DNA from: a virus
Lineage: Duplodnaviria; Heunggongvirae; Uroviricota; Caudoviricetes
Virus record (IMG/VR): IMGVR_UViG_2700989507_000007
Coordinates: 1 to 11,763 of that record
Length of the DNA stretch: 11,763 bases
Reading direction: 5' to 3' (one strand)
Shown one piece after another: positions 7,467 through 8,488 of this stretch. A program made the position numbers and the translations under genes. The notes under the pieces are model-generated. The model was given only the letters and a program-made list of their open reading frames with translations. It was not told where the DNA came from and ran no database searches. Position 1 is the first letter of the stretch, and each line of letters begins with the position of its first letter.

Positions 7467-7826
7467 ATGCTCATAGAGTTTGTTTTGCCTTACCCGCCGA
7501 CGGTGAACACCTACTGGCGACGTCGTGGCAGCACATATTTTGTATCAAAAGCCGGTGAGCGTTATCGCCGGGCTGTGGCGCTTATTGTTCGCCAGCAGCG
7601 GCTGAAATTAAGCCTGTCCGGAAGGCTGGCGATAAAGGTGATTGCAGAGCCACCGGATAAGCGTCGTCGCGACCTGGACAACATTCTGAAAGCACCGCTG
7701 GATGCGCTGACGCATGCGGGAGTGCTCATTGATGACGAGCAGTTTGATGAAATCAATATTGTACGTGGTCAGCCAGTATCTGGTGGACGGCTGGGTGTGA
7801 AGATTTACAAAATTGAGAGTGAGTGA
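7467..7826 (+). CDS. rusA: RusA-family Holliday-junction resolvase, 119 aa
   Basis: Track ORF 7467..7826; conserved RusA-type segment PDKRRRDLDN and matching size. Confidence 0.85.
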   Translation: MLIEFVLPYPPTVNTYWRRRGSTYFVSKAGERYRRAVALIVRQQRLKLSLSGRLAIKVIAEPPDKRRRDLDNILKAPLDALTHAGVLIDDEQFDEINIVRGQPVSGGRLGVKIYKIESE

Positions 7827-8386
7827 GCGTAAATATGATATATCCGGAAATTACAGGCAAAAGCGGCGAACATTTACGCCTGAACACGCTGGAAGCAGTC
7901 TGGATCCAGGGGAAATTACGGATGTGGGGGCGGTGGTCGTATATCGGTGGGGGTAAATCCGGAAATATGTTTAACCGGTTACTGGTTTCGAAAAAGCTGA
8001 CGAAAACAGCAGTTAATGAGGTTTTACGCAGAATGAAGAAATCCGGGCTGGAAAAACCGGAACTTGAGGCATTTTTTCGGGATATGACCAGAGGGAAGCA
8101 GAAGAGCTGGTTGTCACATTGTACAGACACAGAGGCGTTGATTATTGATCGCGTTATCAGTGAGGTGCTTGGGGAATATCCCGGGCTAATCAATGTTCTC
8201 CGGCAAAGGTACGAAGGACGGGGAATGAGCAAACTGAAAATGGCCGAAAGGTTAAATGCAGATCATCCTGATTGGTCGTTGGTTACGTGCAGACGCCGAA
8301 TTGATCAATGGTTGGGGGTATCTGAATTTATGTTATATGCCCCCATGCGCATGGCTTTTGTTACAGAGAAAAATGTTGCAAACTGA
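7823..8386 (+). CDS. putative Q-type late-gene antiterminator, 187 aa
   Basis: Track ORF 7823..8386; GTG start overlaps the rusA stop. Placed by position (after rusA, before a compact terminator and late-region cargo) and a loose LRMWGRWS-type N-terminal resemblance to Q21-type proteins. Not confirmed by search. Confidence 0.55.
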   Translation: MSVNMIYPEITGKSGEHLRLNTLEAVWIQGKLRMWGRWSYIGGGKSGNMFNRLLVSKKLTKTAVNEVLRRMKKSGLEKPELEAFFRDMTRGKQKSWLSHCTDTEALIIDRVISEVLGEYPGLINVLRQRYEGRGMSKLKMAERLNADHPDWSLVTCRRRIDQWLGVSEFMLYAPMRMAFVTEKNVAN

Positions 8387-8465
8387 TCAATAAACTGCTT
8401 CAATCCGTATAAGCTTCGCAAAGCTGTATCGCGAGGCGAAACGCAAGTTTTTTTCGCACAAGGAA

Positions 8466-8488
8466 GCCACCGGAAGGTGGTTTTTTTT
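8466..8488 (+). terminator. rho-independent terminator, candidate tR'-like site ~80 nt after the Q-like gene
   Basis: CCACC-GGAA-GGTGG hairpin followed by eight T (8481-8488). Confidence 0.6.

Follow-up and report, generated by a model that had tools for sequence, protein, structure and literature searches.

The 11,763-nt stretch of viral DNA analysed here (IMG/VR record IMGVR_UViG_2700989507_000007, Caudoviricetes), in the following referred to as the window, carries on its plus strand a gene that an earlier note had described as a Q-like antiterminator of 187 residues. In the open reading frame (ORF) listing of the window, this frame spans positions 7823..8386 and begins with a GTG codon (7823) that overlaps the stop codon of the preceding gene rusA (GTGA). 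The frame as such stands, but the encoded protein more likely comprises 183 residues (7835..8386), judging from the sequence around the start: ATG 7835 is preferred because all homologues begin at this position with MIYP or MINP, because the Pfam match sets in at the first residue when translation begins there, and because PGAP calls a 552-nt coding sequence in a 99.8% identical chromosome of Escherichia coli. The upstream gene rusA (7467..7826, plus strand; Pfam RusA PF05866, E-value 1.9e-16, and PGAP in the 99.8% identical genome) encodes a Holliday-junction resolvase and constitutes the last gene of the nin region before the Q slot of a lambdoid prophage, which is occupied by the gene in question. 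With the overall order of rusA, Q, small ORF, methylase and tRNAs, the gene closes the early right operon and stands directly before the predicted late promoter and the late genes. Moreover, a homologue in Rac-SA53 is annotated as Q and lies upstream of pertussis-like toxin genes and a holin gene. Phage records with homologues of the gene, which belongs to the DUF1133 family, number 49, and one phage record carries the note 'prophage antiterminator; DUF1133 family protein'.

Judged by its sequence, the gene product is a distant and divergent homologue of the Q protein of phage 21 (Q21), forming part of a DUF1133 branch of the PF06530 family. In the Pfam scan, DUF1133 (PF06576) was matched over its full length, with residues 1-175 on profile positions 1-175 of 176, at an E-value of 2.6e-105 and with 349.8 bits against a cutoff of 23.1. 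In addition, Phage_antitermQ (PF06530), which represents the Q21/Q933W family (Yin et al., bioRxiv 10.1101/651190), passed its curated cutoff of 26 with 31.2 bits. These two were the only Pfam families at an E-value of 0.01 or below, with no match to the families of lambda Q (PF03589) and Q82. Hence, among the Q types that the earlier note had considered, it is the phage 21 type that is matched, rather than those of lambda or phage 82 or an unrelated family. The protein was furthermore placed in PHROGs families such as PHROG 753, described as 'anti-termination protein Q-like'. No NCBIfam model matched it, PGAP names the gene 'DUF1133 family protein' under the label "unknown function", and within the library searched, no paper was found to mention the name DUF1133.

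The relationship to Q21 was recovered by several comparisons. Among PDB sequences, Q21 was the sole significant match of the single sequence (phmmer, 7e-6), and a 16-sequence profile (hmmsearch) retrieved it at 9.4e-9, again with no other significant match. Alignment of the same profile with Q21 by hhalign yielded a probability of 96.5% over the full length (E-value 7e-10, 137 columns, residues 13-180 on Q21 5-154), which bears out the designation as Q-like, and the homology takes in the N-terminal WLxGxLxxWGxW helix together with the DNA-binding domain. The residues through which Q21 contacts DNA, S93, K94, T125, R127 and R128 (PMC6606751), align with S132, K133, T151, R153 and R154 of the window protein. 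When the low-confidence AlphaFold model of the protein was submitted to Foldseek, ranks 1-12 were all taken by Q21 chains (E-value 2.8e-4, template modelling scores 0.45/0.56), followed by a match with an E-value above 1. The DUF1133 family is narrow, comprising 67 clusters at 50% identity, mostly fragments, among 1.8 billion representatives, and its identified sources are all enterobacterial. Unexpected hosts for this otherwise enterobacterial gene are 'Candidatus Nanosynbacter', into which a 5.2-kb contig (JARKOR010000130.1, L009) with a 79% identical homologue has been binned, and Actinobacillus pleuropneumoniae, the recorded host of phage PP818812.1 (hit H53) with a 76% identical homologue; the former placement is likely due to misbinning or contamination.

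Downstream of the gene, the plus strand carries an intrinsic terminator resembling tR' (8467-8488), which is recognizable from sequence, folds and conservation and consists of CCACC (8467-8471), the loop GGAA (8472-8475), GGTGG (8476-8480) and a run of eight T (TTTTTTTT, 8481-8488). Its stem begins 80 nt past the last base of the ORF stop codon (8386), in agreement with the distance given in the earlier note. According to ViennaRNA, the core hairpin GCCACCGGAAGGUGGU has a folding energy of -9.6 kcal/mol, which becomes -19.6 kcal/mol when the upstream A-rich tract is paired to the U-tract. The consensus scanner lists the terminator palindrome in the minus-strand row only; the T8 run, however, lies on the plus strand, and a separate scan of loci with identical sequence flags the terminator on this strand.

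A compact control cassette is predicted in the stretch that runs from the final ORF codons through the terminator; its promoter was found via an alignment of homologous loci and the curated phage 21 promoter pR' and not via a consensus scan. In this way, a candidate promoter (8376-8404, plus strand) can be placed where none had been visible by eye. Its putative -35 element TTGCAA (8376-8381), marked by the conserved spacing of the TTG, overlaps the last ORF codons, and its putative extended -10 element (8396-8404) consists of TG (8396-8397), c and TTCAAT (8399-8404), in accordance with a conserved TTnAAT. The resulting layout, TTGCAA-17-TTCAAT with TG at -15/-14, is weak in comparison to the consensus. 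Transcription is predicted to start at A8411, the seventh base after the -10, as suggested by this spacing rule and by analogy with phage 21 and the small RNA (sRNA) IsrK. The start would fall within a likely sigma-dependent pause element, the -10-like TAAGCT (8410-8415), which equals the pause hexamer of phage 21 and conforms to a conserved TAnGCT. The composite pattern TTG-N20-TTNAAT-N5-TANGCT has a single match in the window (8376-8415) and none in 200 shuffles.

The promoter spacer appears to accommodate the docking site of Q. The Q-binding-like element ACTGATCA (8382-8389, plus strand), with the core TGATCA, includes the TGA stop codon of the ORF and is located at -28..-21 relative to the pause element, which is the offset of the phage 21 Q-binding element QBEu (ATTGAGCA), and 6/8 bases are identical between the two. 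Therein, C8388 at offset -22 corresponds to the C:G pair at -21 in phage 21, which is needed for antitermination and whose substitution impairs this process (PMC6606751). The predicted core also contains a GATC (Dam) site (8385-8388) overlapping the ORF stop codon, where methylation could affect Q docking; it may be set beside this site that the first large downstream gene (8960-10018) encodes an N6/N4 DNA methyltransferase.

For a comparison of such cassettes, 21 species-level loci and 80 viral contigs carrying DUF1133 genes were considered, and their downstream regions were aligned, with the first TAnGCT past the stop codon serving as anchor. The alignable cassettes, which occur in 43 distinct versions and accompany proteins of 50-100% identity, all read TTGnnn, 17 nt, TTnAAT, 5 nt and TAnGCT, the latter appearing as TATCCT in locus L018. 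The TTG is situated exactly 34 nt before TAnGCT in all of them (36 nt in phage 21), irrespective of its location in intergenic DNA, across the stop codon or within the ORF by eight codons. In all spacer types except one, TGn forms the end of the spacer, and TTnAAT is read as an extended -10 because of this preceding TGn. A terminator-like site is present in 42/47 distinct cassettes, with the end of the T-run 65-108 nt (median 78) after TAnGCT. A scan of the viral contigs for relatives of Q21 itself returned only copies with 98-100% identity, so it affords no view of the variation of the phage 21 -10.

The alignment also bears on an alternative assignment, according to which TAAGCT (8410-8415) would be the true -10, transcription would start at about 8422 and yield a leader of about 66 nt, and TTGnnn and TTnAAT would belong to the region where Q docks instead of forming a promoter. 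TAnGCT indeed holds the three most conserved -10 positions, TTnAAT lacks the A at -11, and the TGn found before TAnGCT in 8/17 cassette types would make it an extended -10. However, TTnAAT likewise has a TGn before it in all but one of the spacer types, and no allele features a -35-like hexamer 16-18 nt upstream of TAnGCT. In phage 21, moreover, TAAGCT is annotated as pause element and follows the annotated start by 1 nt, and for the IsrK allele, the start of the Rfam model implies a -10 (TATATT) at the position equivalent to TTnAAT. Finally, the conserved leader hairpin described below begins inside TAnGCT and would be missing from the RNA if TAAGCT were the -10. We therefore regard this assignment as unlikely and retain TTnAAT as the predicted -10.

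With transcription starting at 8411, the leader RNA ending at 8488 is predicted to measure about 78 nt (8411-8488). Its 5'-proximal part (8413-8437, plus strand) is predicted to form a hairpin of GCUUCGC and GCGAGGC, with a minimum-free-energy fold of -10.6 kcal/mol. In locus L018 the hairpin shows U-A/U-G exchanges, and the Enterobacter/Klebsiella group features a hairpin of unrelated sequence at the same place of the leader; support for the hairpin is moderate because a pair is broken in three rare variants, and it stays qualitative, the arms not being alignable between cassette groups by MAFFT. An Rfam scan of the window at an E-value of 1 or below identified no known RNA family in 8387-8500, and therefore the leader is neither IsrK nor StxS nor any other curated sRNA. 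Comparable late promoters of phages usually fire constitutively, with transcription being terminated (PMC7547250), so that lysogens probably produce the leader as well; the examples of StxS and IsrK invite the speculation that it accumulates there.

It appears highly improbable that hairpin and T8 run represent just the end of the early (nin/Q) operon, with no promoter between ORF and terminator and late transcription starting elsewhere, for instance near the esterase and lysis genes. The silence of the consensus scanner at this site would agree with such an arrangement, and so would two sRNA genes upstream of the esterase gene, STnc100 and AgvB, which have terminators of their own; yet STnc100/PasD and AgvB are described as independent prophage sRNAs (bioRxiv 10.64898/2026.05.13.724894), and the promoter-like layout keeps its position across coding and non-coding contexts. 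Furthermore, IsrK, which possesses its own promoter (PMC4825925), directly follows a homologous gene in other loci, and an equivalent cassette accompanies a different Q type at this junction. In phages with other Q types, homology with the window sets in at 8511-8561 (megablast; about 8501 by eye), and the quuQ-type cassette ends just before this junction with the shared DNA at about 8501 of the window, which is why the terminator is attributed to the Q module and not to the downstream genes.

Allele comparison further delineates an exchangeable specificity module (8222..8405, plus strand), which encompasses the C-terminal approximately 55 codons, including the helix-turn-helix with the recognition motif T151-C152-R153-R154-R155, together with -35, spacer and -10. 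About 30 viral contigs of the L076/L065 type match the window with approximately 100% identity both over 7760-8210 and from about 8410 onwards, but with only 46-66% identity over approximately 8240-8400, that is, over the C-terminal helix-turn-helix plus -35, spacer and -10. Between alleles, the motif of the recognition helix and the sequence of the spacer change together. All examined alleles with R at the position of Q21 R127 (TCRRR, TCRNR) have C at offset -22, their spacer motifs being TGATCAA, TGAGCAA, TGAGCCA, TTACCAA and TTATCCA, and Q21 itself carries the recognition motif TCRRE. Conversely, all examined E-type alleles (TCEKR, TCERR, TCESR, TCETR, TCENR) have G at offset -22, with the spacer motifs TTACGCA, TGACGTA and TTGCGCG. 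This natural swap of about 8240-8400 would fit what a co-adapted module of protein and site should look like.

Taken together, we estimate the probability at about 70% that the ORF at 7835-8386 is a Q-type late-gene antiterminator of the DUF1133 family, belonging to a divergent branch of the Q21/Q933W family (PF06530), and that the 113 bp at 8376-8488 constitute its cognate control cassette. We read the locus as an ordinary late-gene switch of the lambdoid type, whose protein comes from an under-annotated family related to Q21, and the geometry of Q, late promoter and tR' that had been anticipated in the earlier note agrees closely, at the level of sequence, with the experimentally defined cassette of phage 21. 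In the mechanism proposed by homology with Q21, host sigma-70 RNA polymerase would start at about 8411 from the weak extended -10 promoter (TTGCAA-17-TTCAAT), whereupon sigma region 2 would re-engage the -10-like TAAGCT (8410-8415) and the polymerase would pause after roughly 14-17 nt. Without Q, transcription would terminate at CCACC-GGAA-GGTGG-T8 and the approximately 78-nt leader RNA would be released. On induction, Q supplied from the early rightward operon would bind ACTGATCA in the promoter spacer via its C-terminal helix-turn-helix (T151, R153, R154) and load onto the paused polymerase, which would thereby acquire resistance to the terminator at 8467-8488.

The Q-loaded polymerase would also have to pass at least four further plus-strand terminator-like sites before reaching the esterase and lysis genes. 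Such sites are found at 8796-8813 (plus T6), 10304-10323, 11223-11240 and 11339-11360, and no consensus promoter was found on the plus strand of the window downstream of the cassette, which in combination fits processive antitermination. The earlier view that everything downstream depends on induction is an inference and in this generality probably overstated, because the downstream tRNAs and the sRNAs STnc100 and AgvB presumably have their own promoters.

Several observations weigh against this interpretation. The consensus promoter scan of 7300-9300 reported no promoter; the scanner's silence on the predicted one is explained by the proposed -10 TTCAAT having T at -11 instead of the near-invariant A. 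Q21 binds as two protomers to directly repeated subsites spaced by 8 bp, whereas the window offers one recognizable half-site: the octamer 8 bp downstream (ATAAACTG) matches at 2/8 positions, and a repeat search found no direct repeat. On the protein side, approximately 38 extra residues are located between helix 1 and the core in comparison to Q21, and the minor-groove loop of Q21 (R113) is about 12 residues shorter in all DUF1133 members. The fold evidence is soft because the AlphaFold model is poor (predicted local distance difference test of 56.6, confident only at approximately 100-175), which in turn results from an alignment that is too shallow in this narrow family. Moreover, the association of R/E with C/G may trace back to one or two, or a few, independent events spread by recombination. 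Finally, that the antiterminator AntQ of Gifsy-1 is a DUF1133 protein is an inference from locus isomorphism.

Instead of being a processive antiterminator, the DUF1133 protein could also be a conventional regulator with a sigma-4-like helix-turn-helix that activates (or represses) the neighbouring weak promoter, with the terminator only attenuating transcription. A promoter that is weak by consensus, combined with a docking site overlapping the spacer, is reminiscent of some class II activators, the core of Q21 resembles sigma region 4 (PMC6606751), and the region forming the RNA-exit nozzle in Q21 corresponds to the least conserved and least confidently modelled part of the DUF1133 protein. 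This role nevertheless seems quite improbable, given that the homology to Q21 is not confined to the DNA-binding domain but includes the N-terminal WLxGxLxxWGxW helix, that nearly all cassettes contain the terminator, and that at least four further plus-strand terminator-like sites precede the late genes. In addition, the toxicity of Gifsy-1 AntQ, which is encoded at the equivalent position, is relieved by Rho and RNase H and thus points to antitermination (PMC4825925).

Beyond processive antitermination by a Q21 relative, a more far-reaching scheme can be put forward tentatively, and we consider it possible rather than probable. Accordingly, DUF1133 would represent a separate branch of Q proteins whose DNA-binding loop is shortened and for which one half-site may suffice for loading; with a second half-site not recognizable and the minor-groove loop absent, the loading stoichiometry may differ from that of Q21. 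A single residue of the recognition helix (R153 or E153) may recognize a single base pair (C:G or G:C) located 22 nt upstream of the pause element, re-targeting might proceed by swapping approximately 180 bp of helix plus spacer, and the constitutive leader of about 78 nt could serve as a prophage sRNA in lysogens, as do IsrK and StxS.

Downstream of the cassette, the first ORF (8612..8809, plus strand) encodes 65 residues and belongs to PHROG 331, followed by the gene for the DNA methyltransferase (8960..10018, plus strand; Pfam N6_N4_Mtase, E-value 5.4e-44) as the first large gene within the unit presumed to undergo antitermination. Between these two genes lies a perfect 12-bp hairpin (8827-8857; GGCTGGTGGGTG / CACCCACCAGCC, 7-nt loop) that has no T-run on either strand and whose sole Rfam overlap is insignificant (P26, E-value 0.18). 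The genes for tRNA-Met (CAT; 10059-10134) and tRNA-Arg (TCT; 10215-10291) are encoded on the plus strand upstream of an ORF with a TerB domain (10388-10891, plus strand; PF05099, E-value 6.6e-16). Instead of the TerB pair proposed earlier, only this single TerB ORF was found, the overlapping 193-residue ORF on the minus strand (10704-11285) having no Pfam match. The sRNAs STnc100 (11060-11252, plus strand; Rfam, 145.8 bits) and AgvB (11253-11314, minus strand; Rfam, 96.5 bits, overlapped by a weaker AsxR match) are arranged tail to tail just before the esterase gene region, and each of them has a separate terminator-like hairpin. The idea that STnc100 (11060-11252) might constitute the real terminated late leader, comparable to lambda 6S RNA, was rejected, STnc100/PasD being described as independent prophage sRNAs that flank the esterase gene. 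In the early region, the minus strand harbours an insertion sequence of the IS3 family (2438-3651), whose transposase ORF contains rve and HTH_21 domains and which includes an ALIL pseudoknot for programmed frameshifting (3254-3370, minus strand; 120.9 bits).

Prophages of E. coli very commonly carry DUF1133 genes, and the 1.6-kb region considered here is matched in 3444/5426 complete genomes, at a median of 2 places per genome. Once such genes are recognized as antiterminators related to Q21, with a predictable promoter, docking site, pause element and terminator, annotators can tell where late transcription begins in these prophages; in relatives, the late unit carries the genes for Shiga toxin, LT-II- and pertussis-like toxins, esterase and lysis. 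Q antitermination as such is understood no differently, since a known mechanism is extended to an under-annotated family. What is added are predicted locations for promoter, docking site and pause element, a testable specificity pair formed by R153 and C8388, and a predicted short leader RNA that can be searched for in existing RNA sequencing and Hfq data.

The closest known system is that of phage 21, for which the PDB entries 6P18 and 6JNX, the curated record OL657228 and the coordinates of locus L024 served as reference. In L024, the stop codon of Q (2644) is followed by the -35 TTGACA (2651-2656), the Q-binding element composed of ATTGAGCA and AATGAGCA (2659-2674), the -10 AACACT (2674-2679), the transcription start (2686), the pause element TAAGCTG (2687-2693) and a terminator extending to 2735. 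As in the window, the Q gene is located directly upstream of a compact cassette of promoter, docking site, pause element and terminator; both share the pause hexamer TAAGCT and a TGAnCA motif 26 nt before the pause element, and the terminator lies within about 50-80 nt of the latter. The distance from the Q stop codon to the end of the terminator amounts to 91 nt in phage 21 and 102 nt in the window. The two proteins, on the other hand, are just approximately 23-31% identical. Moreover, phage 21 uses AACACT where TTCAAT with TG is predicted in the window, its start precedes TAAGCT by 1 nt whereas the predicted start in the window overlaps the pause element, and its first hairpin is the terminator itself, which in the window forms a separate second hairpin.

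A different Q type occupies the corresponding locus of phage Stx2_EH1910 (LC567834), where quuQ resides in the same slot between rusA and the same module of small ORF, methylase and tRNAs, which there precedes stx2 (stx2AB). The product of the gene annotated as quuQ is an unrelated Q of 273 residues, and its gene has no detectable nucleotide similarity to the ORF of the window. The stretch following quuQ (L002 7261-7370) nevertheless presents an equivalent arrangement of the promoter-like TTGATT and TAAATT and the -10-like AACGAT with a terminator of CCCGTCGCC...GGCGGG-T7; AACGAT is also the hexamer of the lambda pR' pause element.

Another parallel is provided by Gifsy-1 of Salmonella, where the gene upstream of IsrK, antQ (SL2579 in S. 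Typhimurium SL1344), encodes a Q-like antiterminator whose expression is toxic in an antitermination-linked manner and can be rescued by Rho, SrmB and RNase H, and where IsrK is transcribed from a separate promoter and followed by a Rho-independent terminator that is leaky (PMC4825925). Like the predicted leader of the window, IsrK is a short promoter-proximal RNA (about 77 nt) that ends at an intrinsic terminator, in this case a leaky one. Rfam matches to IsrK (RF01394) in two loci (L003 4588-4664, L007 4588-4661) begin 33 nt after the stop codon (4555) of a DUF1133 gene whose product is 74-76% identical to the window protein. The promoter at these loci is canonical (TTGACT-18-TATATT), the IsrK 5' end given by the model start lies 7 nt after the -10, and in L007 an ORF of 45 residues (orf45) and an ORF6N antirepressor gene follow, as in Gifsy-1. 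The IsrK-locus allele differs from the window by its recognition motif TCCSR, its canonical promoter and an unrelated leader sequence, and an antirepressor is encoded downstream of Gifsy-1 IsrK, in contrast to small ORF and methylase downstream of the window cassette. Locus L007, which originates from Salmonella, contains two pairs of IsrK and C4 antisense RNA (1290-1476 and 4588-4768), one after the DUF1133 gene and the other approximately 3.3 kb upstream near a sok antitoxin, which suggests a duplication of the IsrK/C4 antirepressor control module within one prophage region.

Finally, StxS of Stx phages (933W/Sp5; PMC7547250) and lambda 6S RNA exemplify how a constitutive late promoter that is terminated close by in lysogeny gives rise to a short RNA, StxS being processed from a precursor of 258 nt to 74 nt (PMC7547250). 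Q alleles and leader sequences of the StxS phages differ from those of the window; in related phages, the order of Q, methylase, tRNAs, toxin slot, esterase and lysis genes is the same as in the window.

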